Virus record (IMG/VR): IMGVR_UViG_3300037484_000435
Coordinates: 320,001-384,000 of that record
DNA from: a virus
Taxonomy: Duplodnaviria > Caudoviricetes
Direction: 5' to 3' (one strand)
Length of the DNA: 64,000 nucleotides
This document shows positions 12,553-63,091 of the stretch, in pieces. Position numbers and translations under genes: made by a program. The notes under the pieces were generated by a model, which was not told the DNA's origin, did not search any database, and saw only the letters and a program-made list of their open reading frames with translations. Within the stretch, counting starts at the first letter, position 1. Each line of letters opens with the position of its first letter.

Positions 12553-13647
12553 TTATTCTTTGGTGAATTTTTTACTCTTTGAAATACCCTTAGACTTTTT
12601 AAAAGTAACGCCGTCTTGTCCTGGGTCATCTTTCAAAGAGATATCGGCAACATTCCCAGCTTTAGGATTTGCCCGATCATACTGCCTATCCAAGTATTCT
12701 GGATGCGACTGCATAATTAATCTGGTGCTCATCTTCTCCGCCGTAGAGCTACCATATTTTTTCTCGGCCCGCCTTTCTGACCTGTCTTTCGATCTTTCCT
12801 TATGCAAGTCTTCCATATACTCGTCTAGTGCTCCATCATCTTGGATGACCCAGTCATCTGGCTGGTCCTCTGGAAGCATTTCATAAATAGATTGATAATA
12901 CCCTGTCCACCATAATAAGTTCTTTTGGTCAGGTGTCAATTCTATAGACGATTTTGGAAATAAATGAAGATTACCTTTCTGTGCGACTAAATAGTCCAAC
13001 CGCCACAAATTACTTCGGGCGATATACCTGATTTCTTCTGTCGTATGTCCAACTAAATATCTTAGAAACTCAGACAGAAGTTTGTTTTTGAGCTCAACTT
13101 TCCTTTCTACCTCCTTGCAATAGGTTAGGTAATTGTCCCATAATAACTCATCCGTTTCGGGGTCAAAACAGCAAGCCCATAACATGTAGTCATATTTGGC
13201 TTGTCGTGCTCTCCGTTCAGCAGTATTTGACATCATTATCTCGCGTTTCTTCTCGGCTTGAAATAATTCTTCCTCTAACTTATTTATACTCTCCTGAATG
13301 TAAGGCTTATAAGTAACATCAATATCTACGTCTGACATTTTTCTTTTATTCATGTCAAGTAATTTATGAATAGTTTCAACTTTTTTATCATCCTTTTCAG
13401 TCCAAATTCCGCGCTCACGCATTAGTTTGTCCATTTCAGATTCATTCATAATGTTGTCTTTTTTGGCACGGAACATAACACGGCGTTCCTCTAAATTCGC
13501 AAGGAGGGTGGTGTGACGGGAAGGATAACGGAAAATAACAAAAATAGGGAAATCCTCAGAGAAAAGAGAAACCTCAACAAGTCTTTGAGAAAAACATATC
13601 TGTTCTATTGTTAGTTGTAACTCGTCAAGAGTCCAATCAATAGACAT
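12553..13647 (-). CDS. Tail assembly chaperone, GT-like (long paralogue)
   Basis: Immediately upstream of the tape-measure ORF. It shares SNTAERRARQAKYDYMLWACCFDPETDELLWDNY with the 15859-16566 protein. Probable ATG at 13647 (MSIDWTLDEL). Confidence 0.6.
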   Translation of the reverse strand: MSIDWTLDELQLTIEQICFSQRLVEVSLFSEDFPIFVIFRYPSRHTTLLANLEERRVMFRAKKDNIMNESEMDKLMRERGIWTEKDDKKVETIHKLLDMNKRKMSDVDIDVTYKPYIQESINKLEEELFQAEKKREIMMSNTAERRARQAKYDYMLWACCFDPETDELLWDNYLTYCKEVERKVELKNKLLSEFLRYLVGHTTEEIRYIARSNLWRLDYLVAQKGNLHLFPKSSIELTPDQKNLLWWTGYYQSIYEMLPEDQPDDWVIQDDGALDEYMEDLHKERSKDRSERRAEKKYGSSTAEKMSTRLIMQSHPEYLDRQYDRANPKAGNVADISLKDDPGQDGVTFKKSKGISKSKKFTKE

Positions 13648-14542
13648 GCAAATCACCATACTTTATAATTCTATAACTACTCAATAGATCCCATTTTCTT
13701 GATAACCCAAACTGAACACTATTTCGACAGTCAATTAAAAATTTCTCGGCACGATTACCCCCTAGAGTATAATAACTATAAGTCCCAAAGTCTTTTACCT
13801 GACTAATCCGAGGAGCACCATAAGTGGAATCACAAAAATTCTTAATCCAAGCCAACAGATATCTGGTTCCACAAAAGCCTGTTACTAACGTGGGTATATT
13901 GTGTTTTTTATTCCAACCAAGGGAGACCCACCCATCACCATCAAGAAGTCCTTTAAGATAGGGCAGTATCAAATCATTATCTAATAACTTAGGGGGACGA
14001 AGTGTATAGGTCTTTTGCGGAGTAATAGAAAAATTGTTATTTAAATCTATATACCACCCCTTAATCCCAGAAATACGTATTTCAGCAAAATAGGAATTTT
14101 TACTAAAACCCCTACTTTTTCGAGAATGTATTTCCCCAGAAAAATGAGTCTCTGCTTTAAAAGATCCCAAAACAGAAGCATCCTTCTCAGCCAAACCTAT
14201 AGTTAATTGGTATCTATTTGCAGATAAGTTACCATCGGCAGCAATAAAGCCTGCCCAGTAAGAGTTGTGTGTATTCGGTTCGGAAAAGTAATCCAAATCA
14301 ACGGTTGTTCTGACTCGTCCTAAAGACAAGGTGTGGGAGGTATCACCTTTTATACCCAACCTCAGAAGTCTATTACTAACCGCACCTTTGCTCTTACCAA
14401 GTTGTTGTGAAATTTCTTTACGATTAACCTTTTCATAAAGAGATAATAGTAGCCTATCTTCTTCGGGAGTCCAATGTTTATACCCCTTAGTATTCTGAGG
14501 ATTGCGTGATTGGAGTTCATCTAAGGACCATTCTACTGCCAT
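13637..14542 (-). CDS. Free-standing LAGLIDADG homing endonuclease with one Myb-like W repeat
   Basis: SYWAGFIAADG and YLKGLLDGDG motifs; WTPEEDRLL repeat; RBS GGAG. Confidence 0.85.
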   Translation of the reverse strand: MAVEWSLDELQSRNPQNTKGYKHWTPEEDRLLLSLYEKVNRKEISQQLGKSKGAVSNRLLRLGIKGDTSHTLSLGRVRTTVDLDYFSEPNTHNSYWAGFIAADGNLSANRYQLTIGLAEKDASVLGSFKAETHFSGEIHSRKSRGFSKNSYFAEIRISGIKGWYIDLNNNFSITPQKTYTLRPPKLLDNDLILPYLKGLLDGDGWVSLGWNKKHNIPTLVTGFCGTRYLLAWIKNFCDSTYGAPRISQVKDFGTYSYYTLGGNRAEKFLIDCRNSVQFGLSRKWDLLSSYRIIKYGDLHVY

Positions 14543-14605: not shown

Positions 14606-15748
14606 TTAAGCAGGGATACCTACTTGTCTTTCATATTCTTTTATCTTGCCCCATTTACGAGCAAGACGTGTTGGGGTTGGGACTTTTTGTAACTCTTTGA
14701 GGATACGGTAAGCCCTCTTTCCACCTACTTTATAAGTAAAAGCCCTTGAACCTTTTATAGGATGGACTTTAGCATTTATCCCATACATAGAAGGACAAAT
14801 TTTGTCAAATATTTCCTTCGCCCACTCAAGTAAATTTTGAGTCCCTGTGATGTTAATAATAGGATAAATATGGCCCCACTTATCGGGCTTACTAGGAAGA
14901 ATAATAGAACCGTCTCCATCAATAAGACCCACCATAAAGGCCAAACTATTTTCATAGTTAAGCTTGGTCGGTGGTTCTAATACGAGCGTTTTATTCTGTA
15001 CAATGTTAAAGTTGTTCTTTAGGTCCTGCACCATCTGTTGTGCAGAGGAAAACTCTAGAAAACTCATTGGTGTCTTACCTTTTACACTAGTTGTTAACCT
15101 AGTACGAATGTCACCAGTAAACCTAGACAAACTTGCAAAAGAAGTAAGAACCAGACTATCCTTCAAATGTAGAGAAATACGCACAGTGGCACGTTCTTCA
15201 TCAACAGACCCATCTGCCGCAATAAAGCCCGCCCAGTAAGAATTACAAACATTTGGTTCCTTAAAAAATTCTCTATTGTAATCATAACGTCTACGGTATG
15301 AAGACGGGTCTTTCTTCAAACCCAACCCACGGGCATGGCTTGTAATTGTCCGATAGTCTTTGTCTGGTATCAAATCTCTAAGCTCTGATACGGGTTTTTT
15401 TAAATAATTACTAATTAATATCTGCTCTTCACCCTCAGACCACCGAGTACGTTTTTCTAAACCAAGGGTTAAGATTTTTTTCTTAATCGCTGTTTTGGAA
15501 CGAGCAGAACAGAGACCTAGAGAGACTATCTCGTCCACTGTAAGATATTTATAATTTTCTATTAGGGAAGCAATATCTTCCTGAGACCATTCGGACTTAA
15601 TGTAGCCCCGCAACCCCAGTTGTTCTGCTTTTTTGTGAATTGATGCTTTCTTACGTAACGGTAGAAGTTTTTCCATATCTATTGCTGGTATCCTTGAATA
15701 GTTAATCATCATAATTTCAATTTCTTGTGGTGTCCATTTATTTGCCAT
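14606..15748 (-). CDS. LAGLIDADG homing endonuclease with three Myb-like repeats
   Basis: WTPQEI, WSQEDI and WSEGEE repeats; SYWAGFIAADG and FMVGLIDGDG. Confidence 0.85.
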   Translation of the reverse strand: MANKWTPQEIEIMMINYSRIPAIDMEKLLPLRKKASIHKKAEQLGLRGYIKSEWSQEDIASLIENYKYLTVDEIVSLGLCSARSKTAIKKKILTLGLEKRTRWSEGEEQILISNYLKKPVSELRDLIPDKDYRTITSHARGLGLKKDPSSYRRRYDYNREFFKEPNVCNSYWAGFIAADGSVDEERATVRISLHLKDSLVLTSFASLSRFTGDIRTRLTTSVKGKTPMSFLEFSSAQQMVQDLKNNFNIVQNKTLVLEPPTKLNYENSLAFMVGLIDGDGSIILPSKPDKWGHIYPIINITGTQNLLEWAKEIFDKICPSMYGINAKVHPIKGSRAFTYKVGGKRAYRILKELQKVPTPTRLARKWGKIKEYERQVGIPA

Positions 15749-28358: not shown

Positions 28359-29525
28359 TTAAGAAAGGGGATTGGATTGGAGGTAAGAGATAACTGGGTC
28401 CCATTTACGTTTTAGGTAAGGGGTTTTAACGGAAAGAAGTTTTTCTATAATACGGAGGGCACGTTTACCGTGCACTTTATAGTAGAATATCTTAGTATTA
28501 TACGGACCACAAACATTAGCAGATTTATAGTTAGATTCATTCGGTGGGGCCCACTTCTCAAACCAAAGTTTAACCCACTCCATCATTTCGTGGGTCCCGC
28601 AAACTCCGATTAAGCATTTCTTGGAAGATTTAAAAACTACGGACCCGTCGCCGTCAACAAAACCTCTAATATAACTTTTAATTTGTTCTTCATCAACAAT
28701 CTTTGGGGGTATTAATGTCAAAGACTTCCTTGGGACAATAGAAAAATATTTTTCTAAATCCAAGAACCACTGCCTTACACCCCAAATGAACATCGCTACC
28801 TTGTCGTACCCATCCCCATCTGTAAAATAACGAACGGTTCCCGAATACCCCACATCCTCCACCAGCTGTTCTAAGTGATAGCCATCTCGGGCTTGTAGGC
28901 CGACAGAAAATAAATGCTTCCCTTCGGTTAAGCAACCATCAGCAGCAATAAAGCCTGCCCAGTAGGAGTTCAAAATACTCGGAGTAGAAAAGAAATCCAT
29001 ATCTACAGCATACGTTCGTTGTTCTCGCTTATCATCTTCTGGAACCAAAAGTCTCCAACGGTGGTGAATCGCTTTCCTGCTTCTGTGCGGCAATAGCCTT
29101 TTAATCTCGTTAACATCCTCTTGATAATTATTAATAAGTAATAAATCTTCGTCCCCCGCCCACAGTTTCCTATCAAATTTGTGTTTAGCTATTATTCCCT
29201 TTTTCTTCATCCTATCCAACTTTGAGGCAACAGACGGAAAATTACGACCGACTATCTTCGCAATTTCTTGGATAGTAGTTTTTCCTATATTGTTTAATAA
29301 GAGTTGCTCGTCGTCTTCGCTCCATTTTTCCGTGGTAATTTGATTCTTGTGAATAGTTTCTAATCCTAATTTACGCCTTCTATGTTGTACAGACTGGTTA
29401 GTTCTGCCAAGCAAAAGGCCACAAATTTCATCATATGATAATTTTCCATAGTTACTCCTGATAATATCATCTTCCCATTCTTCCCACACCTTATTGTCTT
29501 TAGCACAGCCTTGTAATTTTGTCAC
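28359..29525 (-). CDS. LAGLIDADG homing endonuclease with three Myb-like repeats
   Basis: WEEWED, WSEDDE and WAGDED repeats; SYWAGFIAADG and YIRGFVDGDG. Confidence 0.85.
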   Translation of the reverse strand: MTKLQGCAKDNKVWEEWEDDIIRSNYGKLSYDEICGLLLGRTNQSVQHRRRKLGLETIHKNQITTEKWSEDDEQLLLNNIGKTTIQEIAKIVGRNFPSVASKLDRMKKKGIIAKHKFDRKLWAGDEDLLLINNYQEDVNEIKRLLPHRSRKAIHHRWRLLVPEDDKREQRTYAVDMDFFSTPSILNSYWAGFIAADGCLTEGKHLFSVGLQARDGYHLEQLVEDVGYSGTVRYFTDGDGYDKVAMFIWGVRQWFLDLEKYFSIVPRKSLTLIPPKIVDEEQIKSYIRGFVDGDGSVVFKSSKKCLIGVCGTHEMMEWVKLWFEKWAPPNESNYKSANVCGPYNTKIFYYKVHGKRALRIIEKLLSVKTPYLKRKWDPVISYLQSNPLS

Positions 29526-32597: not shown

Positions 32598-35129
32598 TTA
32601 TACATAATCAACCCCTAAACAGGTACCATATATTTGTATATTTTTAAAATTAGAGGTAGTTATTTTAAGTCGCATAATGTTGGAATTTCTAGGTACCAGT
32701 CCAGATTTTCTCCCTACAATATAACTGTAATTATCTACTGTAGAAAGTATCTGAAGGTTAGTTATTTGTTCGTAATTGGCCCCGTCATCCGAGCTAACCC
32801 AAACCTTAACATCCGTGCCTAAAGATACAGTGTCAACGAATTTACACTTAACAATTAATTCAATACTGGTGGGATTTATAGTAAAAGTAACCCACGGTTC
32901 TGAGATTAGGGTCATTTCGGAATCAGAGGTCATATAATTGGCTGTAAATCTAGTTACTGATGGAATGTGGTCTACAATTTTAAAACCCACAGCAACATCT
33001 ATTGATTTAGTGACGGTAGGAATAAATCCACCAGTAGCTTCCCACGCAGAACGACCAAGTAAACTAGGCCTGACTTGGCGTTGGGAAATCTCCAACTGGT
33101 CTATATATACGTATGTGGCACTGTACCCGCTATTTATAAACATGCGGTAAACACTATACCCGCTCACCGTAGTTAAAGGGAACCATGGTGTAAAGATACC
33201 CGCCGCCATCTGTGGATAATCGGAGCCAGCATAAGTAGAATCCAAATCGTCCCATGTTCCTCCTTGCGACCTATAGCCCTGTAACTTAAATCTCTTCGGT
33301 GCATATGTTGTATTACTGGTTCTCCATCTCCAAGCATAGGGTATAAATGGTGATTTAGTATCTATCTGTACCCATTGGTTCGCAGAGCTACCAGAATTAT
33401 ACCAAGGATTAGTCCCCCCAAATGCGTACCAAGCATCATAGGAAGTATTGTAAATAGACGATGCTGAAGCACTAAAAGGTGCCGGATTTGTATTTGAGTA
33501 CATAGTAGGAACAACACTAAATTCTTGTCGGGATAAGTCGGAGTCAAGCCAGTTCCAAGCGTTGCTAGTTACCACAAAAGCATCTTTCAGTGCTCCCTCT
33601 GAGGTATTGTCAGGACTATTTACCCATACCTGATTAGCATCTAGGTATTGCCAATTACCATTGTTATTCTGGGCGATACTACTCCACCCAGAAACGGTCG
33701 TATAAATTTTCCATGTGCTCCTTTGGTCAAAGCTAAACGCGTAATCCAGTTTAGTCAGACCTTTACACCCTTGATCTATTCTTATAGAATCTAAATGTGT
33801 CCAACTCTTAGTTAAAAAATGTGAAGCATTAGTAGTATGAGTAACCATAATATCCTTATCATAGTTTATCTCTCTAAATGTGTATTTAATAAAAGTACCA
33901 CGTAAACCAGCCACACTATCTCTACCACCAAACACATACAATTGATTATTAAAAGTGTCCCACGCGGTAGCCGAGTTTAAGAAAAATTGGTAAGGTGTAG
34001 TAGTATTGTAAAAACTATTTGTGTCAAAATTGTAAACCAAAATATCTGATGTGAACTCACCAGTAGATGATTGCCCACCAATTATAATAAGACATCGGTC
34101 TATAGGGTCATTAGTCAAGGTATGCCCCCACATAGTAACATTACTAGTGTGCCTCTGCACCCAAGTGTTTGACTCGATCGCATAAAGCCAAAAATCACCA
34201 TATAAAGTCGTTCCAGCAGTACCACCATAAATTAGCATGCTTCTAGTATGAGAATCATAGGCAGCCCAATGGTCGTTTCTTGCAACTGGGTTCCCAGTGT
34301 CTGCCAGATTAGCCCAATAGTTATTAACAAAAGAGAGCTGAAACGTCTCCTTATAGTTAGTAGCATTATACAGCCCGCCCCAAACCAACATTTGATTACC
34401 CACAGGGTCGTATATGGCTGAGTGTGAATGTCTAACCCCAGGGCCATTTCCACTAGGAGTGAGCAATTGCCACGTTCCACCTACTATGGAATAAGACCAG
34501 GTGTCATTTACTAAACCTGACGCAGTTTGCCCGCCAAATAAAACCAAACTTCTACTTTGATTATTATAAATTAAAGTGTGATTATCTCTGCCCACAGGAG
34601 AGGCCCCCATAGGGGTAATGTTGGTCCAAACACTGCTCTCAATATCGTATTTCCATAAATCTGATTTCCTAGCCCCGTCATTACCTCCGAACAAGAACAA
34701 AGCTCTATCCTCTAAAGAGTAAGCCATCATAGAATTTTCGCGGGCGGATGGGTGTATCGAGGTAGATATTTCTGTAACGGTATTAGATATTTCATTACTA
34801 TATAAAGGGACAAGGATATTATTAGAGACAGTAACACCAGAAGAAGTGAAGAAGTTATCTAAGGTGGGTTGCAAGCTAGAAGATATACCAGACGCTGTGT
34901 ATAGTCGTTCACAATACCCAGCAGAGCTATAATGGATGATAGAGCTACTATCAATGCCAGATGCTGTAATATAGTTATCACAGCAAACATCGTCTAAAAG
35001 CACCCTACCCTTACCAAGAGACCATGCTTGTAAAGCAACATTAAAAAGAATACCAGAAGCTACAGGGCTGTCATCACCACGGGTTCCCGCCGTCCCAGAT
35101 CCTAGCTGATTACTATTAATTATTGACAT
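32598..35129 (-). CDS. Kelch-repeat virion protein with discoidin/F5-8-like domain
   Basis: Six GG...W Kelch blades, then SASSIYNTSYDAWYAF...QWVQID...PKRFKLQG. Its termini are shared with the 35133 protein. Confidence 0.72.
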   Translation of the reverse strand: MSIINSNQLGSGTAGTRGDDSPVASGILFNVALQAWSLGKGRVLLDDVCCDNYITASGIDSSSIIHYSSAGYCERLYTASGISSSLQPTLDNFFTSSGVTVSNNILVPLYSNEISNTVTEISTSIHPSARENSMMAYSLEDRALFLFGGNDGARKSDLWKYDIESSVWTNITPMGASPVGRDNHTLIYNNQSRSLVLFGGQTASGLVNDTWSYSIVGGTWQLLTPSGNGPGVRHSHSAIYDPVGNQMLVWGGLYNATNYKETFQLSFVNNYWANLADTGNPVARNDHWAAYDSHTRSMLIYGGTAGTTLYGDFWLYAIESNTWVQRHTSNVTMWGHTLTNDPIDRCLIIIGGQSSTGEFTSDILVYNFDTNSFYNTTTPYQFFLNSATAWDTFNNQLYVFGGRDSVAGLRGTFIKYTFREINYDKDIMVTHTTNASHFLTKSWTHLDSIRIDQGCKGLTKLDYAFSFDQRSTWKIYTTVSGWSSIAQNNNGNWQYLDANQVWVNSPDNTSEGALKDAFVVTSNAWNWLDSDLSRQEFSVVPTMYSNTNPAPFSASASSIYNTSYDAWYAFGGTNPWYNSGSSANQWVQIDTKSPFIPYAWRWRTSNTTYAPKRFKLQGYRSQGGTWDDLDSTYAGSDYPQMAAGIFTPWFPLTTVSGYSVYRMFINSGYSATYVYIDQLEISQRQVRPSLLGRSAWEATGGFIPTVTKSIDVAVGFKIVDHIPSVTRFTANYMTSDSEMTLISEPWVTFTINPTSIELIVKCKFVDTVSLGTDVKVWVSSDDGANYEQITNLQILSTVDNYSYIVGRKSGLVPRNSNIMRLKITTSNFKNIQIYGTCLGVDYV

Positions 35130-35132
35130 AAA

Positions 35133-38100
35133 TTAATACCTAACGGCTACGCCCAAAGCATGAATTTCTACTCTTTTCGAGTTGTGAGTAGTTATTTTAC
35201 ACTTAATCCGGTTATCACTCCTTACGGTTAACGAGGTATCAATACCTTTTATAAAGGTGTGATCCTCCTCATTACGCAAGAGAGTCAACCCAGTAATTTG
35301 CGTGTAATTAGCACCGTTATCAGTACTGATCCAAACCTTTATGTCGCTATCCATCGTTAATGGGGAGTAAGCAACAATGTCCAACAGCACAAGGGCGGAA
35401 GTTGGATCATTAGCTGAGGCTTCCCACATCTCAGTAATCAAAATGATGTCACTTGTAGGTGCCGTATAATCTATGGAGTAAGAAATCATTTCTGGAACGT
35501 AATTATAAACACAGTCAAATCCGATAGCAAAATCTAGGGTTTTTGTACCTGTAGAAAACCCCCCAGTACCTGTGTATCCAGAAGTAGTAACATCAGACAA
35601 TACACTACTAGTCATTCTGTTGCCACTGGCTGTCATAGCCCACTGCAACGCTGAAATCTCATTATTGGTAGTTGCACTCTGCCATGTACTATTACTATTG
35701 AGAAACTCCCAATTACCTGAATTAGTCCTTACTATTGGTAACCAAGAGGTCCCACTAGCAACAACAAAAGACTGTCTGTTATCAAAACTAAGAGCATGGT
35801 ATATGTTAGAACTTCCTCTAACATCCACTGAAGGAGTTATATTCAGGATACTATCCCAAGCCTTCGTATTTAACTGGTTTCCGCTGGTAGTAGTAACGAC
35901 TATTCCAGATGGAGCCATCAGGTCCCATAGATTATACACAGTTATATCCTGGCTATGGTTTGGCAAGGCCACTGTATTACCACCATAAATATATAGATCA
36001 CCCGTTAAATCATTCCATGCATACATAAGATCGGACTTAGCCTGCGGAGTATACAAATCCGCGGATACCGTGTACATCGTGTTGGCAACTATATCGTAGC
36101 GGTAGAAGTCATTATACCGAGTAGCACTATACCCACCAAACAATAACAAAGAATGGGTCTTATAGTCATATCCGAGGGCCACCCCACACCTTACCGCTGG
36201 GCTCGCCCCTGTGTATTGCATTTGAATCCAAGTGTTAGACTCAATAACATATTTGTATAGAGTATTATAATAAGTTGTGGAGCCGTCAAAACCACCAAAA
36301 AGCCATATACACCTATTTATTGGATCATACGCCATAGATGCAGACCGTCTAGCCGAGGGTAGTGTTCCAATAGCAGCTATCTTTACCCAACTATTAGACT
36401 TAACATCATAATACCAAAACTCACTATATGTCGCTGCACCAGTACCGCCAAAAATGTACCACCTGTCATTGTCAGTATCATACGCTGACCCATACTGATA
36501 CCTATAAACGGGTAATGCCCCAGTAGGATATACAGTATACCAATTATTAGTAGCAAAATCATACTTCATAAGATCATTGGTATTAACACCCTCGCCCGAG
36601 AATAAAAAGACAGCATCTACCACAGGAGAATAAACCATAGATAGCCCCCGCCGTCGAGTAACACCTACGGGGGAACTAGATGTGTTAACACGGGATATAT
36701 TATTAGTAGCACAATCAATCTGCCAAAAATCATTATATGGGTGGTTACTATTATTTTGACCATAGCCGAGGAACACTTTATTTCTAGGTTTAACAAATAC
36801 CATAGCTCCATCATAGCGCATATCAGGATACCTATCAAGTAGAACATTAGTGGAAGGACTATAGGACCATAGGGAATTTCTATACTGGCTCCCCTGCCCA
36901 CCAAACACATAAAAAACATTGTTGTCGGTGTCAGTAGTATAGCCAAAAAAGTAGGTGGTATAGCCGGGCGTAGCGTATGCGGTATCGGGGGTAATTGCAG
37001 TCCAAGAGGTTTTAAAATTATAATTCCATACTTCAAGGGCCTTAGCGGCGCCCTGCCTGTAACCAGCAATGCAATAGAGATAGTCATTAACACTATCATA
37101 AAAACAACTGTGATCTCTCATTGTGTACGAAGATGAAGTAAGTTGTACCCACCTGTTGGGATTACTAGTATAATCCAACTTCCAAGTTTCCGCCACTTCG
37201 GACCCAGTATTTCCCCCCTGTATTATCATTGCTCCGCTGGCTGTTTGATAGATCGCCACATGCTCATCTCTTGCTGTAGGGCCGCTAGATAGAGACATCT
37301 GTCTCCAAGCATTAGTTCCGATAGTATATTCCCAAAGCTCAGAAACTCTTGAACCAGTGTTACCACCGAATATCAACATGGTACCACTATTGGTCATGTA
37401 AGTAGCGGTATGATACCGTCTAGCTGTTGGTCCCCCAGCATAAGTCTGCTGGGTCCACGTCCCAGACACCAGACTATATTTCCACATTTCATTAGTTACA
37501 GCGGCGATGTACCCACCCCACACTATTAGGTGCCTATTTACGGGGTCTAAAATCATAGAGTGCCCGTATCTTGCGGTAGGGGAACTACCAACTACATTAG
37601 CTCTGGTCCATTGACCGGATACAGTAGAATATTTCCATAATTCGTTAATAGCGTTAACAGACTGTTGTCCGTAACCACCAAACATCCAGACATTTTTCTC
37701 TACAGTATCATAGGACATAGCAGTATTATACCGCATATTAGGGCCATCATTCTGTATACGTGACCACCCACTGGTGGTTGAGGTCAGATAAGCTCCAGGA
37801 ACTACTTTGTTATCAGTAACTATAATGTCATAAATGCCCTTTATTGGGTAGGTCTGTTTATATAAGTCTAGTTTAACCTCGGCAAATCTATAGCCCGAGC
37901 CAGTAATAGCCATTATAGTTCTGGTATCGCCATAAAAATCAACAAGTAAACCTAGTTGAATATCTGTATTATCATTGCCCGCGCCCAAAGTTATCCTTTG
38001 GTTTACGGTAGTAGAGTTACCAAAAGTTTCCGCACTATAAGCACTAGTAATTACTATTTCATCTACCGAAGAAGTGGCGTCCACTGTGAAAGAATTGTTG

Positions 38101-38570
38101 TAATTCGTAGACCCCCTAACTTCTATAAAATTTCCTGTAGAGTAGGGTTGGCCTACACAAGGCAATCCCACCTTCCCACCACCCTTATTCACAGCGGCCC
38201 CGCCAGAAGTCAACGTGTAGGTCATACCTTCAAAATGTCCGTATTGTTCATTATCTTGTGCCCAACGATAAATACTTCCTTTTTTATCTGTGCGATGGAT
38301 ATCAGTAGGCTCAGTAAAGGTCAATACCGTATTATCGGACGTATTGGCAATAACGGTTTCGTAGTAACCTAAAGTATTATACCTAGCAACAGACTCAGAG
38401 TCTATTCCTTTAGAGCTAGAGAAATTATTCGTATATAAGTCGTAACCTTTAACAATAGGCTCCCCGCCCTGCCACGCTAGCATGATCATGGAATTTAGGT
38501 CTCTATCGTTAGATATACCTGTTTCCCCTTTATCTCCTGCTTGTGCTGTTACAAATTTAATTATTGCCAT
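35133..38570 (-). CDS. Double Kelch-propeller virion protein
   Basis: About 12 Kelch blades (FGG...ELW.Y...W). N- and C-terminal domains are homologous to the 32598 protein. Confidence 0.75.
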   Translation of the reverse strand: MAIIKFVTAQAGDKGETGISNDRDLNSMIMLAWQGGEPIVKGYDLYTNNFSSSKGIDSESVARYNTLGYYETVIANTSDNTVLTFTEPTDIHRTDKKGSIYRWAQDNEQYGHFEGMTYTLTSGGAAVNKGGGKVGLPCVGQPYSTGNFIEVRGSTNYNNSFTVDATSSVDEIVITSAYSAETFGNSTTVNQRITLGAGNDNTDIQLGLLVDFYGDTRTIMAITGSGYRFAEVKLDLYKQTYPIKGIYDIIVTDNKVVPGAYLTSTTSGWSRIQNDGPNMRYNTAMSYDTVEKNVWMFGGYGQQSVNAINELWKYSTVSGQWTRANVVGSSPTARYGHSMILDPVNRHLIVWGGYIAAVTNEMWKYSLVSGTWTQQTYAGGPTARRYHTATYMTNSGTMLIFGGNTGSRVSELWEYTIGTNAWRQMSLSSGPTARDEHVAIYQTASGAMIIQGGNTGSEVAETWKLDYTSNPNRWVQLTSSSYTMRDHSCFYDSVNDYLYCIAGYRQGAAKALEVWNYNFKTSWTAITPDTAYATPGYTTYFFGYTTDTDNNVFYVFGGQGSQYRNSLWSYSPSTNVLLDRYPDMRYDGAMVFVKPRNKVFLGYGQNNSNHPYNDFWQIDCATNNISRVNTSSSPVGVTRRRGLSMVYSPVVDAVFLFSGEGVNTNDLMKYDFATNNWYTVYPTGALPVYRYQYGSAYDTDNDRWYIFGGTGAATYSEFWYYDVKSNSWVKIAAIGTLPSARRSASMAYDPINRCIWLFGGFDGSTTYYNTLYKYVIESNTWIQMQYTGASPAVRCGVALGYDYKTHSLLLFGGYSATRYNDFYRYDIVANTMYTVSADLYTPQAKSDLMYAWNDLTGDLYIYGGNTVALPNHSQDITVYNLWDLMAPSGIVVTTTSGNQLNTKAWDSILNITPSVDVRGSSNIYHALSFDNRQSFVVASGTSWLPIVRTNSGNWEFLNSNSTWQSATTNNEISALQWAMTASGNRMTSSVLSDVTTSGYTGTGGFSTGTKTLDFAIGFDCVYNYVPEMISYSIDYTAPTSDIILITEMWEASANDPTSALVLLDIVAYSPLTMDSDIKVWISTDNGANYTQITGLTLLRNEEDHTFIKGIDTSLTVRSDNRIKCKITTHNSKRVEIHALGVAVRY

Positions 38571-44978: not shown

Positions 44979-46385
44979 TTATTTTTCGCTCTTAGAAGAA
45001 GGTTTTTTCCGAGCCAGATCACGCTCTAAATGGAAGGCTTCTAGGGCATATTCCAAAGATTCGATCTTTCTAGTTAACCACTCCAAATGTTTTCTTTTAG
45101 CAGTTTCGTCATCCAGTTCACCGGGGTCTTCCATACTCTCATTCACAACAATTTCTTCTTCATCGGTTATGCTGTTACGAGAATCAAATTTCCAAACACC
45201 GTGGTCATCTTGGAACCAACGCCTACAACTTTTATCCTTTCTATCGCCCGCCGCCTCACAGGTAGCGTTCGCAAATAGACAAGAAATTTCTTCTTGGTAA
45301 CGGTACTGCAAGCACTGGGCCGAATGAGAAGTGATATCGTTTGGTGTCTTCGGAGGACTACTTGGGGCAGGAACCATAGTAGGAGGGGCGTCACGTATAG
45401 TGTCGATCTGCTCGGCAACTTCCACATTTGTATTCTCCACTACTGGGGTTATCGCTGCCTCTTCTACTTGAGGTTCTGTAATTGTAACTTCGGGTTGAGC
45501 TGTTTCCTCCGGTTTAATTTCTTCTGTTACTTGATGGACCATAACTGTCCCTCCATGTTCACGAATTGATTTCATATATGAGTCTACTTTACGTAAATCA
45601 AGAGTTGGTATTAAAGTTTGGGAAGATGCCGCCATTTTTAGATCCTCACAATCGCAGCTTGTACTTTGAATTGTACAGCTAGGACAAGCAGGCTGAATCA
45701 CAAGACCTACACCTCCCCAAGTAATATTATGTAAATACTTATAAATCTTCATTTGTTTTTGAGTTGCATCAGCAAAGATCACATTAAGTGTGTGGGCTCG
45801 ATTAAACTCTTCTTCGGACTTAAATTCACCCATCAATTGCTCTATAAACTCCCCCAACCCAAAAGCCTCGGCCTCGTCTAAACTTAGCATTGTGCCATTT
45901 TCTAGCAAAATTGAAAAACTTTCTAGATAACACTCCATACTTAGAGCGTAGGCTTTTCTTTCAATAGGGCTCTGTAGTGCAGGAAATCTATCAATATAAA
46001 CTAACCCTCCAATTACTACATCAATCGCCTGCTTAGCAAGATCTGCTTGGGAAGATTGGGCATACTGTGCAACATCAATCATACTATTATCAGATCTATT
46101 GACGTAAACTCCAGAATAAATATGACCTACAACTTTATCTATTTCATGCTCAATATCAACAGCTTTATAGAGTAAAGATGGGTAAGCTTTAATAAGCTCG
46201 TCATTGGCAAAGAAAGCTCTATTAAGATTAGGCCCGCTTTCACACATTTTACCAGCAAAAACAACTAGATCCTCTGTAACTACATCAGGAAACGCAATAT
46301 GCTTGTACAGATCAGGAATAGCCTTTCTGTTGATAGAAAAGTCAATGGGATATCCTGCTGTGGCCTTCAATTTATACTTATACAT
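44979..46385 (-). CDS. Prohead (maturation) protease-like protein with C-terminal extension
   Basis: GPNLNRAFF...KAVDIEHEIDKVVGHI and ALSMECY motifs; follows the portal gene. Confidence 0.68.
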   Translation of the reverse strand: MYKYKLKATAGYPIDFSINRKAIPDLYKHIAFPDVVTEDLVVFAGKMCESGPNLNRAFFANDELIKAYPSLLYKAVDIEHEIDKVVGHIYSGVYVNRSDNSMIDVAQYAQSSQADLAKQAIDVVIGGLVYIDRFPALQSPIERKAYALSMECYLESFSILLENGTMLSLDEAEAFGLGEFIEQLMGEFKSEEEFNRAHTLNVIFADATQKQMKIYKYLHNITWGGVGLVIQPACPSCTIQSTSCDCEDLKMAASSQTLIPTLDLRKVDSYMKSIREHGGTVMVHQVTEEIKPEETAQPEVTITEPQVEEAAITPVVENTNVEVAEQIDTIRDAPPTMVPAPSSPPKTPNDITSHSAQCLQYRYQEEISCLFANATCEAAGDRKDKSCRRWFQDDHGVWKFDSRNSITDEEEIVVNESMEDPGELDDETAKRKHLEWLTRKIESLEYALEAFHLERDLARKKPSSKSEK

Positions 46386-47307
46386 CAGTCACAAACCTCC
46401 TAAAAATTTCGTATTTCCTAGTAAGCCTTAGGCACTCAGAGTTATATAAATATCTAAGAATCCTTACCGCTCGATCTCCATTTACAGTATATGTAAATAT
46501 ATTGCCAAGCTTAACTAAATTAGCAATGTAATGATTATTTGGAGGCATGTGAGTATCCATAAAAACTTTGATAAAGGACATTGTCTGCTCTGTCCCTGCC
46601 CAACTTGCCCTCAACAGCTTTTTTGAGCCGCCCTTTTGAATACTAATACACCCATCCCCATCAAGAAGTCCTAGAATAAAAGCACGTTGGCATTCAACGT
46701 TTAAGTGGGTAGGTGGCTTCAAAGTAAGTGACTTAACGGGAGTAATCAAAAAATTTTGTTTTAAATCACTCACCCAGAACCCTCCACAAAAATCAAGTCT
46801 AAGCATATGGCTCCCAGTTTTATGGATTGGGCCCGTGAATTTCGTGAGCCCAACAATCTTCTCAAGATAATCTCGGTCTCGCTCATGAATATGGATGTTA
46901 ACAACCTTATTTTTTTGAATACACCCATCGCTGGCTATAAAACCAGCAACTTGACTATTTAGGGCGGTTGGGATGGCAAAAAATTTATAGTCATAGGAAT
47001 AAGTAATCCTCCCATCTGGTCTAGTCCCTACCAAGCCTAAGTATTTTATTTTATGATTTACATCAGTAGGTGTCCTTCCTGTAAGTTTATTAGATATTTG
47101 CTTATCTGTCATTACTAAGTAATTCTCAAGAAGAAAGGATTCTTCATCTGATGTCCATCTCTGATTCTTCAGAACCTTTAACTTACTTAAGCGTACATAG
47201 ACACTTGGTACTCCTCGACCTAGTATATTAGCTATTTCCTTCACAGTGTACAGTGTTCTATTATTTTTTAGAAATTCAATCTCTTGATTGGTCCAAGGCC
47301 CACTCAT
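46378..47307 (-). CDS. LAGLIDADG homing endonuclease with two Myb-like repeats
   Basis: WTNQEI and WTSDEE repeats; SQVAGFIASDG and FILGLLDGDG. Confidence 0.85.
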   Translation of the reverse strand: MSGPWTNQEIEFLKNNRTLYTVKEIANILGRGVPSVYVRLSKLKVLKNQRWTSDEESFLLENYLVMTDKQISNKLTGRTPTDVNHKIKYLGLVGTRPDGRITYSYDYKFFAIPTALNSQVAGFIASDGCIQKNKVVNIHIHERDRDYLEKIVGLTKFTGPIHKTGSHMLRLDFCGGFWVSDLKQNFLITPVKSLTLKPPTHLNVECQRAFILGLLDGDGCISIQKGGSKKLLRASWAGTEQTMSFIKVFMDTHMPPNNHYIANLVKLGNIFTYTVNGDRAVRILRYLYNSECLRLTRKYEIFRRFVTDV

Positions 47308-49357: not shown

Positions 49358-51130
49358 TTACCACATCCCGTAAGAACCGCCACGCGGTGTTATAATACCC
49401 ATAAGAGGCATCCTTTTAACAGGCCCTAATAACTTCTTTGTCATCGTATAAGTCACAAAACATAACATCAACCAAGCGGAATAAAGGTCCTTATGTCTAA
49501 CAAACCCACCACCAGTTTTAGGTAAATCATAGTGGGTCCTACCAGTTCTTGTCTCGCTCGGCTCTATACTTATGATTTGATTCATCATCTGGACAATAGT
49601 CTGGTAATCTGTGTGCTTTGCATTCAAAGCCTTATCTGAGGAATCTCCCTCCATAGATATAGTAGGAAAGGCAATTTCTCTTTTTTGTAACATCCCATAC
49701 GCGTATTGGTGAGCATCATCCAACCACGTAGGGCTAAAATCAATTTTCTGCAAAATATGTCGTCCTTTCTGCCCTCGGTAAGATTCATCATCCATATCAA
49801 ATATAGGAGCATAATTGGTACCATCTTTAGAAGTCAAACCTTTTGCTAAATAATCTATTATCTGAAGACCGCCACCGCCTGCGTCTGCCACAATGTGGAT
49901 GGGGTTAAATAAACGAGCCAACTCAAACAATCTCTCAACCATATCGGGGGTAAATGCGTCTTTCCCAAAATACTGCTCGGCCCTCACCACCTTCATTCCA
50001 GCATGGAGGTCATACTCAGCGATAACAATAGCCATAGCATCATTAACTCTGGCTGTGTCAAACGCCATAATATAAGTTTTTCCGGGTAATCCACTAGAAA
50101 GTATCTTTAAGGAATTATCTTTACACTTATCAACGTCGGAAGCTTTAAAGAACCCACCAGAATCTGATATCCACGCGGCTTCATATTCCATACGAAACTG
50201 TAGTGAGGACATATCTCGTTTAGCATCTTCAATACCTGCCTTTACTAACCACCCCTCTTCCAGAGACCAGTAAGGAATCTGAAATGTCGCGTAATCCATA
50301 GGATTATCCGTATAGGTTTCATCCAAACCGTCAGAATCTGGCCTCCGTATTCCATGCATACGATCCGAGTATTTACAATATAAACCATAAACCCAGTTGA
50401 AGGAGAAATACCCAGAAAGAAACATATGAATCTGGTTAGCCCCCGAACCCTTGTCCAAAAAAGACAAAAGTTGAGCCTTCTTCTCATCAGAGAAGTTTGA
50501 CGCTAAGATTCTTTTTTTCTCTTTAATAATTCTGACTTGTTTTGTAGGTTCCAAGGCACTAGCACCAAAAGGCCTCAAAACAGTCTGGAAGGTGTCCTCT
50601 GGAATAATGTTCGCCTCATCTAGTATAAGGGTATGCATACGGTTTCCACGAATCCTAGCCCCATCTGCTAATGGTAAGCCTATAATAACAGAGGGATTAT
50701 GCCCAGAAACAGCTTTGAAAACGAGGCGGCAGGAATCATTTGAAATGATGGGGGCACGTTCAGTACAAGCCTGAAGTAATGGGGAACGACTCCAAATCTG
50801 TGTAATTTCTTCAAATATCTGTTTAGACTGTCGAAAAGAAGCCGACATACAACCAACACGTCTACCTGGGTAAAGTAATGCCGTCAAAGTAGCCAAAGTA
50901 GCTGCCCCAAAAGTCTTACCAAAACCACGACATGCAACATTAATACTATTACGTGCACGCCAAATCCTATTTATAACTACTCGTTGTATAGGGGACAGTG
51001 AGAACCAATCGGTCTCTGTCTCTGAAATTGGGTTATAAAGCAAGTCTCTCGCGGCCAACGCGGGGTAACGTCTCCAAGCATCGACCAAATCTTTGCTTGC
51101 TGAAAATATATCTTGGTTTGGTGACCGCAT
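49358..51130 (-). CDS. terL: Terminase large subunit
   Basis: ACRGFGKTF (Walker A), LILDEAN (Walker B), FRMEYEAAW, nuclease MAFDTARVND. Confidence 0.88.
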   Translation of the reverse strand: MRSPNQDIFSASKDLVDAWRRYPALAARDLLYNPISETETDWFSLSPIQRVVINRIWRARNSINVACRGFGKTFGAATLATLTALLYPGRRVGCMSASFRQSKQIFEEITQIWSRSPLLQACTERAPIISNDSCRLVFKAVSGHNPSVIIGLPLADGARIRGNRMHTLILDEANIIPEDTFQTVLRPFGASALEPTKQVRIIKEKKRILASNFSDEKKAQLLSFLDKGSGANQIHMFLSGYFSFNWVYGLYCKYSDRMHGIRRPDSDGLDETYTDNPMDYATFQIPYWSLEEGWLVKAGIEDAKRDMSSLQFRMEYEAAWISDSGGFFKASDVDKCKDNSLKILSSGLPGKTYIMAFDTARVNDAMAIVIAEYDLHAGMKVVRAEQYFGKDAFTPDMVERLFELARLFNPIHIVADAGGGGLQIIDYLAKGLTSKDGTNYAPIFDMDDESYRGQKGRHILQKIDFSPTWLDDAHQYAYGMLQKREIAFPTISMEGDSSDKALNAKHTDYQTIVQMMNQIISIEPSETRTGRTHYDLPKTGGGFVRHKDLYSAWLMLCFVTYTMTKKLLGPVKRMPLMGIITPRGGSYGMW

Positions 51131-59161: not shown

Positions 59162-59531
59162 TTACATTCCAGTCCGTAAAGATATAGGTTGGCTTACCTT
59201 GCTTCATCGCAAGGTCGATTGTGTGTTTGGTTCCTTTAGATTGACCATCCCAAAAAGCTGCTATCATATCAGAGTAATCTACTATCTCTATATTCCTTTT
59301 ATATCCAGCAGACCTATCGTAAACACCGTTTACTCTCCATTTAGCAGGAAATACTTTCCAGTCGTGACCCTCTTCTTTAGCATAATCTATTGCTAGAGAA
59401 TCTGCACCCTGAGCCCCGCCAGAAACAATGGTACACTTCCACACCCAATAGGAACGGAGTAAATCATCTAATAGCCTTTTCATATAGGGATAGTCATTAA
59501 ACGTTCGCGATCCCACCACTCCTAATTTCAT
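59118..59531 (-). CDS. SLOG/YspA-like Rossmann-fold protein
   Basis: LGVVGSRTF, IVSGGAQGADSLA, AGYKRNIEIV, FWDGQSKGTKHTI. TAATG coupling at 59531. Confidence 0.78.
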   Translation of the reverse strand: MKLGVVGSRTFNDYPYMKRLLDDLLRSYWVWKCTIVSGGAQGADSLAIDYAKEEGHDWKVFPAKWRVNGVYDRSAGYKRNIEIVDYSDMIAAFWDGQSKGTKHTIDLAMKQGKPTYIFTDWNVNGTVSQSSNTIKAD

Positions 59532-60544
59532 TATGTTGGTCCCCAACCGCGTTTCTTAAGATATTCAACTGCCTTTTCCATATCACCTTTAGACTTCATC
59601 AAGGCTTCCCTACAATATATTTTGGGCTCACCAGTCCTATCCCTCAGGTCCTTTATCTTTGCTGTAGTAGCATAATCGTATATATCAATATCTTTGAGTT
59701 CTGGTAATTTTAATTCAGAAAAATATTTGTCATGGGCTTCACAACCGGCCTTAGATAACTGGTCTCGAAGTTTTTCGAAACCCTCTCTTGTCTTTTCTAA
59801 GGATTCTTTCATACCAACAACAAGTTCCTCAGTAGATGGCGGATTATTTACAAGATCGGCTAAAGAGAGATCCCCTGTATCCTTAGGTTTATCCCCATAA
59901 GGTCTGCTATCCCCTATATTCTCAAATTCACTGTTGAAATTTCGATAAAGAGCTTTATGGTCTTTGGCCACGTGGAACTTTTTGACATAGCCCTCTGGTA
60001 TGTCTTCACGTAACTCTACGTCTGCCCAACCATTGGGCAAAGGGTAAGCGTAATAGGGATAAGATTTGTTAGACCCACGAACGTAGGCCACGTTGATAGG
60101 AAGTCCCATCTGGTAAGCTAGACGACATCTGTGTTGCCCATCATTGATGATAAGTTTTATGTTTCCCCTACAATCAACGTACTCTTCAATTACAGGAGGG
60201 AGAATATCTATAGTCTTAATCTCAGCCACTTTACTGATATAAGGTTTGCCACCTGCTTCTATTGCAGTCTCAGTTGTATTAGAATAGTCAACTTTCAAGT
60301 AGCCATTCAATTGTAGAATATCCCACCCGAACTCGTTCATAATGTCCCACCGCAATTGTTCAATCTTCTTCAACTCACTAATAAGACAGTAACGCTGGGT
60401 TGGTGCCAAAACGGCGGGGTCAAAAGTTTCAATACTAATAAATGAATTTAGATAGGGCTGGGTGTTCCCGCCCCGTAGTTTGATATGTTTGAGTTTTTCA
60501 CACAACTCACCAGCAGATTTTGCTGAAATGTCAGAGAAGTCCAT
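59531..60544 (-). CDS. ParB/Srx-like domain fused to a C-terminal EF-Ts N-terminal (UBA-like) domain
   Basis: LPPVIEE...LIINDGQHR; C-terminal TTAKIKDLRDRTGEPKIYCREALMKSKGDMEKAVEYLKKRG. Confidence 0.6.
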   Translation of the reverse strand: MDFSDISAKSAGELCEKLKHIKLRGGNTQPYLNSFISIETFDPAVLAPTQRYCLISELKKIEQLRWDIMNEFGWDILQLNGYLKVDYSNTTETAIEAGGKPYISKVAEIKTIDILPPVIEEYVDCRGNIKLIINDGQHRCRLAYQMGLPINVAYVRGSNKSYPYYAYPLPNGWADVELREDIPEGYVKKFHVAKDHKALYRNFNSEFENIGDSRPYGDKPKDTGDLSLADLVNNPPSTEELVVGMKESLEKTREGFEKLRDQLSKAGCEAHDKYFSELKLPELKDIDIYDYATTAKIKDLRDRTGEPKIYCREALMKSKGDMEKAVEYLKKRGWGPT

Positions 60545-61177: not shown

Positions 61178-61993
61178 CTACCTATACTGCGACCTTGGTC
61201 TCCTCGGTTGTCGAGAAAAAAGTCCTAATTCTTTTCTTGTTGCATTTAAATAACTACACGACACACCTAATCTTCTGGCCACCAAATCCCAAGTTCCTTC
61301 CTCGTTATATAAATTAACAATCTCATCAGACGATACTCTTTGTGAAAGTCTTTCGGGCCTAGGAGGTATAGATATAATGGTTTTATATAAATTGTATTTT
61401 CTTGGCAAATAAAAATTACAATTCCCATATAGGAGATGTAATATTCTTTGAACAATAGGGTTTCCAGAAAACTCAATAATGTAATTCTCCCCATTTCGTC
61501 TGGGTGATTTTCTAACATCTCTGTCTGAGCCAACAAACTTGGCGAAGCCTCTCACCAAAGGTTTAGTATTTCTAAAATTAACACACCAGTGGTTACTACG
61601 AGTGCTATGACGATAAAAAATAGAGCCATCTCCGTCAAACAACCCTCTGTAGTAATGCACTTTTTGTTCCTTAGGAACCAGATTACAAGGTTCGAGATTA
61701 TAAGTTTTATTATGAACTAAGCCCAACTCTCTCAATCTAGTAGACATCATGGGAGATCTGAAAGCTAAGGAACAAGTGTGTGCTTTACCTCTAATCCTAT
61801 CACTAATTTTATGGTTGGATTTAATTGTCTCTTTAAAAAGTTCAAGCCATTCGATATCTTTTATAGATATTTCCATACCAATGGAGTTCTTTTGAGATAC
61901 AAAACCATCAGACGAAAGAACACCAAGCCAATAGGCTGGGCCCTCATAATTCAAATTATTAAAGTAATCATGGGTAAGAGTGTATTCTTTCAT
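61178..61993 (-). CDS. LAGLIDADG homing endonuclease with C-terminal HTH
   Basis: AYWLGVLSSDG and YYRGLFDGDG; C-terminal WDLVARRLGVS. ATG at 61993 with a GGAG RBS. Confidence 0.83.
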   Translation of the reverse strand: MKEYTLTHDYFNNLNYEGPAYWLGVLSSDGFVSQKNSIGMEISIKDIEWLELFKETIKSNHKISDRIRGKAHTCSLAFRSPMMSTRLRELGLVHNKTYNLEPCNLVPKEQKVHYYRGLFDGDGSIFYRHSTRSNHWCVNFRNTKPLVRGFAKFVGSDRDVRKSPRRNGENYIIEFSGNPIVQRILHLLYGNCNFYLPRKYNLYKTIISIPPRPERLSQRVSSDEIVNLYNEEGTWDLVARRLGVSCSYLNATRKELGLFSRQPRRPRSQYR

Positions 61994-62028: not shown

Positions 62029-62616
62029 TGGAGCTGGGCGGTACTGCCCCGCCGTGTAGTCTGGCTTTCAATTATGAGTCTCTAGGTATCGTAGCCCGTT
62101 TATACTCAAAGCAGAGTTTTCTAACTCTTCGGGACCCAGCGGTTAGTGACTGATAGCGAATTGGTTTCCCGCACGGTGGCGGTTGGCCTTCTCATCCCTA
62201 TCCCAGTTTCAGTTGCTGGAATACCTACGACCGTAGGATTTAAATTGGGGGCGTATTGGGGGTGTTTTAATTAAACTAACCCTGCTAGTGCTAGGTTCGG
62301 ATTGGCTACCAACATCTCCCTTTTTCTACGCCGCCTCCACCAGTTGGTGTTTAACCTCTCCAACAAGAGGGCACGCGTAACCAAAGTTACGTGCTCCACC
62401 CAGCTATTCTGTTGCAAAGTCAACTGGGGAACTCCACAAGTTCTATTAAACGCTCGCGAAAGTCAAGCTGTCGCGTTTGTCTTGCTCCAAGTAGGATAGA
62501 ACTGTATCGAAAATTGAATTTTCGGCATTTATTGTTTCGCATCATTTTACTGGATGATACACCAGGATACCAACTTATAACCTACTTTCACCACCTATCG
62601 ATCCTAGTTCAGCCCC
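62029..62616 (-). ncRNA. ssrA: tmRNA (one-piece, unusually long, about 588 nt)
   Basis: Acceptor stem GGGGCTG/CAGCTCC with G3-U70 and discriminator A. T-arm GGCGG-GGCAGTA-CCGCC. P2 pairing GGTATC/GATACC. pk1 CTGG/CCAG plus GTATCAT/ATGATGC. Resume context ATAAAT-GCC. CCA is not encoded. Confidence 0.92.
62446..62526 (-). other. tmRNA tag reading frame (A)AENSIFDTVLSYLEQDKRDSLTFASV*
   Basis: 26 codons from GCC (62526), ended by tandem TAA TAG. Confidence 0.85.
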
Positions 62617-62656
62617 ATGGTGGTAGGAGGACTCTATTGAATCCCCCTTTCTTTCA

Positions 62657-63091
62657 CTATCTTAAGAATCTTTTATCTTGTCCCATCAAATACTTATCTA
62701 ATAGGACTAGAAGGTTCTCTAAAATATGGCATAATTCTTTAGCACCCTGCTCCCTTTTCTGATTACGTACAACGTAATTGGCACCATTATCGTAGTATTC
62801 AAAAATATCCTCGTAACCATTACCAGAAGCAATAACTACTACAGGGAGTAAAGACGCCATACGGTTTGACTTTATATTAGCCAAAACCGTGTTAATAAGT
62901 TTGGGAGGCGATTTCCCAACTAAGATAATGCAAGCATCATAAGATTTATCCTGTAATTTGGATGTTATATTTACGGTTTGCATCTCTAAGTTAGACTCCA
63001 ATACACCAGCTTTAGTCAATTGAACTATCCAAGCGTTCGCTTCCGCGGAGTCCTCACTAAAAATTAAAAATTTCCTGTCAAAATGTTCCAT
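62657..63091 (-). CDS. Degenerate (pseudo-)receiver domain protein
   Basis: FLIFSED...DACIILV...IKSN....LPVVVI...EDIFEYYDNGANYVVR resembles Rcp1-type receivers but lacks the phospho-Asp and the conserved Lys. Confidence 0.6.
   Translation of the reverse strand: MEHFDRKFLIFSEDSAEANAWIVQLTKAGVLESNLEMQTVNITSKLQDKSYDACIILVGKSPPKLINTVLANIKSNRMASLLPVVVIASGNGYEDIFEYYDNGANYVVRNQKREQGAKELCHILENLLVLLDKYLMGQDKRFLR

Follow-up and report, generated by a model that had tools for sequence, protein, structure and literature searches.

A predicted one-piece tmRNA of 588 nt with a 26-codon tag in a 545-kb sediment megaphage, and its long homologues in related phages

Phage tmRNAs are known and, to our knowledge, have barely been studied. 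Phage-encoded ssrA genes have been recorded in large genomes rich in translation genes, including those of the Bxz1-group mycobacteriophages, Bacillus phage G and the huge phages (PMC4131195, PMC7162821), and tmRNAs and SmpB have already been reported from huge phages in a survey that used ARAGORN (PMC7162821). The modal tmRNA tag comprises 10 residues (PMC11915505). Long tags lacking a terminal LAA are already known from Mycoplasma, and that of Mycoplasma pneumoniae, with 27 residues rich in hydrophobic and aromatic amino acids, is degraded by Lon (PMC8403727). In a jakobid mitochondrion, a tRNA-like domain of the alphaproteobacterial lineage is found in a gene re-permuted to the standard order, which is the sole such case in the tmRNA database paper (PMC11915505).

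In this study, we analyzed a locus from an IMG/VR virus record of 545,322 bp (41.9% GC, 40 tRNA genes) derived from a sediment metagenome. The window, that is, the whole stretch of DNA analyzed, is 64,000 nucleotides of this record. A preliminary description had placed a phage tmRNA with a complete tRNA-like domain and a first pseudoknot (PK1) at 62029-62616. These coordinates are correct: the minus strand, read from 62616 to 62029, gives all the listed parts, which are present and paired, and homologues align with the 588 nt over their full length. Judged by its sequence, 62029-62616 (-) is a complete one-piece tmRNA gene. CCA is not encoded in it, and CAAG comes after the discriminator A. 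The plus-strand ORFs across the RNA (62391-62762 and 62302-62499) gave no Pfam match. The phage tmRNA is real, well beyond a chance resemblance, and intact, and is probably functional. The best overall explanation, which we regard as quite likely, is a functional standard-order tmRNA of a 545-kb sediment megaphage from a lineage in which this RNA has grown to 503-673 nt.

ARAGORN and the Rfam model RF00023, which had been suggested as a check of the locus, do not call the 588-nt copy. ARAGORN made no tmRNA call over the 64-kb window, Rfam at its gathering score made none for 62029-62616, and a search of the region at permissive E-values returned partial, sub-threshold matches on the minus strand to RF00023 (9.8 bits) and RF04321 (13.9 bits). 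RF00023 is a model of 374 positions with a gathering cut-off of 47 bits, which 9.8 bits over part of the length do not reach. Lowering the ARAGORN thresholds to 30-60% produced just overlapping nonsense "permuted" calls, and ARAGORN recognized none of the sequences permuted in silico either. No match was found when the region was compared by blastn with 50,697 GenBank phage records.

Relatives were identified through the terminase (window 49358-51130; 47-61% identity) or through the protein encoded upstream of the tmRNA (62657-63091), homologues of which are 71-88% identical, or 76-88% in the phages with full-length tmRNA homologues, and lie on contigs of up to 658 kb. The phage G002 (259.7 kb, terminase 61% identical) carries a 521-nt tmRNA that is called by ARAGORN, scores 61.9 bits with RF00023 and aligns end to end with the 588-nt tmRNA at 75% identity, and G003 carries a 503-nt tmRNA scoring 89 bits. 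The more distant G005 has a tmRNA of normal size (346 nt, 116.8 bits) with a short tag ending in AA, and G004, G006, G007 and G008, most of which are fragments, gave no tmRNA match. An ORF-poor gap of 590-790 nt follows the upstream gene in every contig with a gene table (six look-ups), and three contigs with DNA (L401, L402 and L403) carry tmRNAs of 561, 516 and 673 nt, respectively. The 561-nt tmRNA scores 49.4 bits, with the ends assigned to it here, and thereby passes the cut-off. In total, five long homologues of 503-673 nt were found in related megaphage contigs, three of which pass the RF00023 cut-off. Among the six long members, ARAGORN misses four (the 588-nt copy and its three closest relatives) and the Rfam cut-off misses three. 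Because RF00023 gives 49.4, 61.9 and 89 bits to homologues that share the locus or come from related phages, its failure on the 588-nt copy is attributed to the alphaproteobacterial-type T-loop and the insertions of that copy, not to missing homology.

RNAalifold on the six long members predicted 119 pairs, 33 of which show compensatory double changes. Stems defined by hand for PK1 and two post-tag pseudoknots form every pair in each of three phages that differ in sequence. Other searches yielded no further members: neither the upstream protein nor the clamp loader led to a relative in IMG/VR, the 107 metagenome matches of the 18-mer GCCACCGTGCGGGAAACC were unrelated save the known relative's own contig, and a pseudoknot-pattern search, with 10 viral and at least 120 genome matches, gave no tmRNA beyond the known members.

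The tRNA-like domain is built from both ends of the gene. The 5' strand of the acceptor stem, GGGGCUG (62610-62616, -), forms seven of seven pairs with 62030-62036 in the 3' strand CAGCUCC, which together with the discriminator A (A73, at 62029) occupies 62029-62036 (-), and the G3:U70 pair is present and kept in all six family members. The D-arm analogue AACUAGGAUCGA (62598-62609, -) is of the alphaproteobacterial type and matches the consensus of RF01849. Directly before the acceptor 3' strand lies the T-arm GGCGG-GGCAGUA-CCGCC (62037-62053, -), with a 5-bp stem that covaries across members and a 7-nt loop of the alpha type. When the D-arm analogue is held unpaired, the ends fold into a canonical tRNA-like domain and a long P2. 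The loop GGCAGUA had been described as non-canonical; it departs from the general consensus, yet it is what alphaproteobacterial tmRNAs normally carry. Of 116 T-loops from viral contigs with the 5' 19-mer of the 588-nt tmRNA, nearly all of them alpha-type permuted tmRNAs, 86 read GGCAGUA and 19 GGCGGUA. GGCAGUA also occurs in six alphaproteobacterial genomes, including a Sulfitobacter and a Pseudovibrio, and the consensus of the Rfam family alpha_tmRNA (RF01849) reads CCGGG-GGCgGUA-CCCGG with the 5' end GGGGgCGAAAuAGGAUCGAC. The 5' 19-mer of the tmRNA is identical in at least 119 alpha-type permuted tmRNAs on viral contigs, nearly all with ANDN...LAA tags, and the T-arm plus acceptor shares 28 identical nt with one phage-borne permuted tmRNA. 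Side by side with these findings, the at least 119 viral contigs with alpha-type permuted tmRNAs (loci L007-L125) include some with long tags (25 residues in L123 and 20 in L031), and the permuted tmRNA of L039 sits on a 357-kb contig.

The alpha-type tRNA-like domain is found in all four closest members (the 588-nt phage, L401, L402 and L403), and the T-loop of G002 and G003 is the general UUCGACU. On this evidence the close subfamily is one that couples a predicted alpha-type tRNA-like domain with the standard, non-permuted gene order. SmpB (PF01668) was not found in the window, in agreement with the preliminary description, and its absence extends to the whole 545,322-bp record; nor was it found in four relatives. 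From the lack of SmpB in the phage together with the alpha-type domain, we infer a domain matched to the SmpB and processing enzymes of the host, which is probably an alphaproteobacterium. The exact 5' 19-mer occurred in 2 of 401 sampled Alphaproteobacteria genomes and does not narrow the host. If the domain tracks the SmpB and processing machinery of the host, as its presence in a one-piece gene suggests, it could serve host prediction.

Next to the tRNA-like domain, the 5' strand of helix P2 (62566-62597, -) folds with its 3' strand (62056-62090, -) into a long P2, the pairs of which covary. PK1 (62541-62565, -), an H-type pseudoknot with stems CUGG/CCAG and AUCAU/AUGAU, lies upstream of the tag, and both of its stems are fully paired in the three phages. 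Downstream of the tag, a pseudoknot with the loop GCAACAGAA and the stems GAGUU/GACUU and CCCAG/CUGGG (62399-62434, -) has compensatory variants in G002 and G003. It is followed by a variable hairpin (62371-62394, -) and by a second pseudoknot (62343-62370, -) with the stems CCUCU/AGAGG and GUUGG/CCAAC and the connector UUAAACA, the second stem of which covaries to GGUUA/UGACC and GCUUG/CAAGC in relatives. Then come an expansion hairpin, GGCGUA...UACGCC (62250-62332, -), with a 71-nt loop in place of the GNRA-type tetraloop of relatives, and a 3' multi-hairpin domain (62113-62237, -) that includes the invariant 19-nt block CGCCACCGUGCGGGAAACC (62163-62181). The RNA had been called oversized, with the surplus after the tag. 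Both statements hold: the length is real, family members measuring 503-673 nt against the 374-position Rfam model, and the pseudoknots, hairpins and 71-nt expansion lie in the post-tag region. The excess is made up of the 26-codon tag, at least two covarying post-tag pseudoknots and the variable hairpin (62343-62434), the multi-hairpin 3' domain and the 71-nt expansion.

The expansion hot spot is the hairpin directly after the conserved CUGGUGGAGG. This hairpin has a four-base loop in G002 and G003 (GAAA) and in L402 (AAAU), and a near-identical freshwater-sediment DNA contig of a close relative has a 23-nt hairpin with a GAAA tetraloop there. Inserts of about 45 nt, different from that of the 588-nt phage, occupy the site in L401 and L403, and the 588-nt phage carries the 71-nt extension, which prolongs the stem in a closed three-way fold. 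The largest member, of 673 nt (L403:1105-1777), has pseudoknot modules that are apparently duplicated and the resume codon GGC rather than GCC. A mobile repeat was considered for the 71-nt insert and rejected, as it is single-copy in the genome. An intron was likewise rejected: the region gave no match to a group I or group II intron or to tmRNA_intron at E-values up to 10, the T-arm is contiguous and holds no group I intron in its loop, and short forms are present in DNA runs. Together, the DNA copies of the short form and the lack of any intron match identify the insert as a genomic expansion.

This evidence also bears on the idea of a mature RNA of smaller size or made of two pieces, with the expansions, chiefly the 62250-62332 hairpin, excised or nicked after transcription. 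The type of tRNA-like domain, otherwise found only in two-piece tmRNAs, and the position of the expansion in a terminal hairpin loop tolerant of any content speak for such processing; the standard gene order, the single continuous P2 helix, the lack of intron matches even at E = 10 and the closed fold of the insert speak against it, and the short forms present as DNA in X2, X3 and L402 indicate that the length differences are genomic indels and not products of splicing. We therefore consider post-transcriptional processing of this kind rather improbable and read the gene as encoding a continuous RNA. Nor was there support for the suggested separate function of the added RNA domains, as the expansions vary among close relatives (516, 561, 588 and 673 nt) and the 71-nt insert is absent from the DNA of near-identical relatives. 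As far as comparison of sequences can tell, the extra RNA is an evolutionary expansion of the pseudoknot scaffold and not a separate functional module. The spread of 516-673 nt among close relatives offers a natural experiment on how far this scaffold can be expanded.

After PK1, the resume context AUAAAU is followed by the codon GCC, and GCC plus 25 further codons encode the tag AENSIFDTVLSYLEQDKRDSLTFASV (62449-62526, -), in a register that agrees with the Rfam alignment of a homologue, before the tandem stops TAA TAG (62443-62448, -). A 26-codon tag not ending in Ala-Ala had been described, and the translated frame gives exactly that peptide. In each of the four close members the tag has 26 codons and is followed by TAA (AENSIFDTVLSYLEQDKRDSLTFASV, AEDSIFDTILAYVEQDKRDNLGYATV, AEDSIFDTILAYKEQDERDNLGFASV and GEDSIFDTVLSYLEQDARDGLGYATV), and all four keep the same frame and the C-terminus (F/Y)A(S/T)V. 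Pairwise among these members, pN in the tag is 0.08-0.19 and pS is 0.28-0.52, and the tag of a relative from an RNA library gains one codon (+3 nt net) through three single-base insertions that fall within five bases. The low pN relative to pS and the net +3-nt indel indicate purifying selection on the tag peptide, which argues that the tag is translated and that its sequence matters. The more distant tags are AEDNSFDMLSAFCEADRKVSVAYAG in G002 and AEKSMTEIILESVDHFNGSLAATA in G003, the range in the family being 24-26 residues, and the ClpX-type LAA end is absent in six of six members. Beyond the close family the tag changes fast: G000 (the 588-nt phage) against G003 gave z = 0.7 and G002 against G003 gave z = -1.6, neither significant, and G000 against G002 showed no clear third-position excess.

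On the 5' side, 9 nt separate the mature end from a conserved leader hairpin (62626-62647, -), which follows the stop of the upstream gene and which all four close relatives share, their stems staying paired through compensatory changes. The hairpin may be a processing or termination element. Because it takes up the space that a promoter would need, the RNA is probably released from a longer transcript. The upstream string CCUCCUACCACC, which resembles CCUCC..ACCA, was considered as a relic of a permuted acceptor and rejected, being the 3' half of this hairpin. Just downstream of the tmRNA, and not part of the RNA, a LAGLIDADG-type homing endonuclease gene (61178-61993, -) was identified by a weak Pfam match; relatives lack it there, which makes it a recent insertion. 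At least five LAGLIDADG-type genes were noted in the window (61178-61993, 13637-14542, 14606-15748, 28359-29525 and 46378-47307 (-)).

The inserted neighbour, together with the failure of standard finders on the 588-nt copy, might suggest a decaying, non-functional relic with a mere resemblance to tmRNA. All stems are intact, however, the frame is open, kept in relatives and marked by pN below pS, and a sister copy of the same design passes the Rfam cut-off. The 3' domain is about 96% identical with that of a relative whose region 62498-62749, covering the 5' part of the tmRNA and the neighbour gene, is about 86% identical. Decay is therefore hardly credible, and a functional gene is the reading retained here.

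Other observations on the surroundings were also recorded. The tmRNA had been thought to fit with an RNA-repair module as protection of translation; its position gives no support for this, since the only RtcB gene (genome 473977-475053) lies about 90 kb beyond the window. Among the 40 phage tRNAs, one with the anticodon CUA, which reads TAG (G000:47126-47202), is a hint that TAG may be suppressed or recoded over part of the genome. A ParB-CE protein encoded at 59531-60544 (-) has a weak match to the EF-Ts N-terminal domain at its C-terminus, and the ParB-CE genes of relatives at this place vary in length. Two neighbouring, very large Kelch-repeat proteins of 843 and 1145 residues are encoded at 32598-38570 (-).

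Parts of the tmRNA recur in sequencing data from 17 sediment, wetland and soil studies, and contigs from four runs were compared with the locus. Those from two metatranscriptome studies match solely within 62084-62592, inside the tmRNA and not in its flanks, and a 176-kb DNA contig of a relative spans the tmRNA and both flanks. These RNA-library sequences, Logan contigs from relatives, give no information on ends, strand or level and could be DNA carry-over, and the stretches that they leave uncovered carry no meaning. They are a weak hint that relatives may be expressed as stable RNA.

How the RNA might work can be proposed in outline. A precursor would be transcribed from upstream, trimmed at its 5' end by RNase P and completed by addition of CCA at its 3' end, after which host AlaRS, recognizing G3:U70 and A73, would attach alanine. 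The tmRNA would then be brought by SmpB and EF-Tu of the host into ribosomes stalled on broken mRNAs, where translation would resume at GCC, alanine and the 26-residue tail would be added and synthesis would stop at TAA. The alpha-type tRNA-like domain most likely fits the SmpB and processing enzymes of an alphaproteobacterial host.

The fate of the tagged proteins was considered in the light of the proteolytic genes of the phage. A ClpP gene (294 bits; G000:404707-405246, +) adjoins a hybrid histidine kinase/receiver gene, and a second ClpP-like gene (89 bits; G000:440388-440867, -) may encode a prohead protease. A Clp-type unfoldase of 677 residues (G000:127990-130023, -; locus L398:1057-3090) comprises an AAA_2 and ClpB_D2-small module with a GYVG pore loop and an IGI loop at the site of ClpP-docking tripeptides; its N-terminal 350 residues have no Pfam match, and two relatives that carry tmRNAs, G002 and G005, conserve it at 51% and 39% identity, respectively. 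The Lon_C domain was not found in the phage. From a tail that is under peptide-level selection and lacks the ClpX-type LAA end, we infer that it would act as a degron for another AAA+ protease route, for which a Lon-like route, as for the Mycoplasma tag, and the phage ClpP with the Clp-type unfoldase are candidates, and we hypothesize a link between the tail and the phage Clp protease. Alternatively, the tail may not be a degradation signal, the RNA serving solely to free ribosomes, or the tail sending rescued fragments elsewhere, for instance into sequestration or out of reach of the host ClpXP route. The LAA-type end is missing throughout the family, the tail is conserved as a peptide, which would be unneeded in a mere donor of a stop codon, and its hydrophobic spacing, read from the sequence, resembles that of an amphipathic helix. 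All characterized tmRNA tags, however, are degrons, including the long Mycoplasma tag recognized by Lon (PMC8403727), the tail has small or hydrophobic residues at its end as in degrons, and the phage invests in ClpP and an unfoldase. A tail without a degradative role is accordingly unlikely, and the degron reading is preferred. Its most specific form would be a tagging and disposal route private to the phage, in which the amphipathic 26-residue tail is unread by host ClpX, bound by the 350-residue N-terminal domain of the unfoldase and fed to the phage ClpP; this is a tentative proposal and a doubtful one. If it is true, the fate of proteins from stalled ribosomes would be decided by the phage and not by the host.

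What appears to be new is how large the RNAs of this family are (503-673 nt), that a one-piece gene carries an alpha-type tRNA-like domain, and that a 26-residue tail is conserved. New, too, are the failure of standard finders to see the 588-nt copy and two of the three relatives closest to it, and the presence of a Clp system in the same phage. Since surveys depend on ARAGORN and Rfam, which miss members of this family, the diversity of phage tmRNAs is probably under-counted. With ClpP and an unusual unfoldase in the same genome, a selected 26-residue tail that lacks a ClpX signal makes it directly testable whether a virus redirects protein quality control in bacteria.

Compared with known systems, the phage RNAs share with RF00023 and E. 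coli SsrA the gene order, an acceptor with G3:U70, the T-arm, P2, PK1, an A/U-rich leader before the resume codon, a tag with tandem stops and further pseudoknots, and differ in the length of 503-673 nt, the tag of 24-26 residues without an Ala-Ala end and, in the close subfamily, the alpha-type T-loop. With the two-piece tmRNAs of RF01849 and RF04321 they share the 5' end GGGGCUGAACUAGGAUCGA, the T-loop GGCAGUA and the acceptor CAGCUCCA, and with the RF01849 consensus the pseudoknot loop GCAACAGAA. Unlike the alphaproteobacterial two-piece tmRNA, the phage gene is not permuted (the coding part precedes the acceptor part) and is much longer, and the alphaproteobacterial tags (ANDN...LAA) are unrelated to the phage body and tag. 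Assignment to the permuted class was rejected, with the acceptor part encoded last and RF04321 scoring 13.9 bits. The Mycoplasma tmRNA likewise carries a long tag that is rich in hydrophobic and aromatic amino acids and lacks LAA, the ClpX signal, at its end, but there is no sequence relationship and a Lon_C domain was not found in the phage. The 588-nt phage differs from the huge phages reported with SmpB in that none was found in it, and it shows no DNA similarity to the 50,697 GenBank phage records. In the jakobid mitochondrial tmRNA the tag frame has been lost, whereas the phage RNA keeps a full tag and many pseudoknots. The family might descend from an alphaproteobacterial two-piece tmRNA that was re-permuted to one piece and then expanded, an origin that would be compatible with a disposal route private to the phage.
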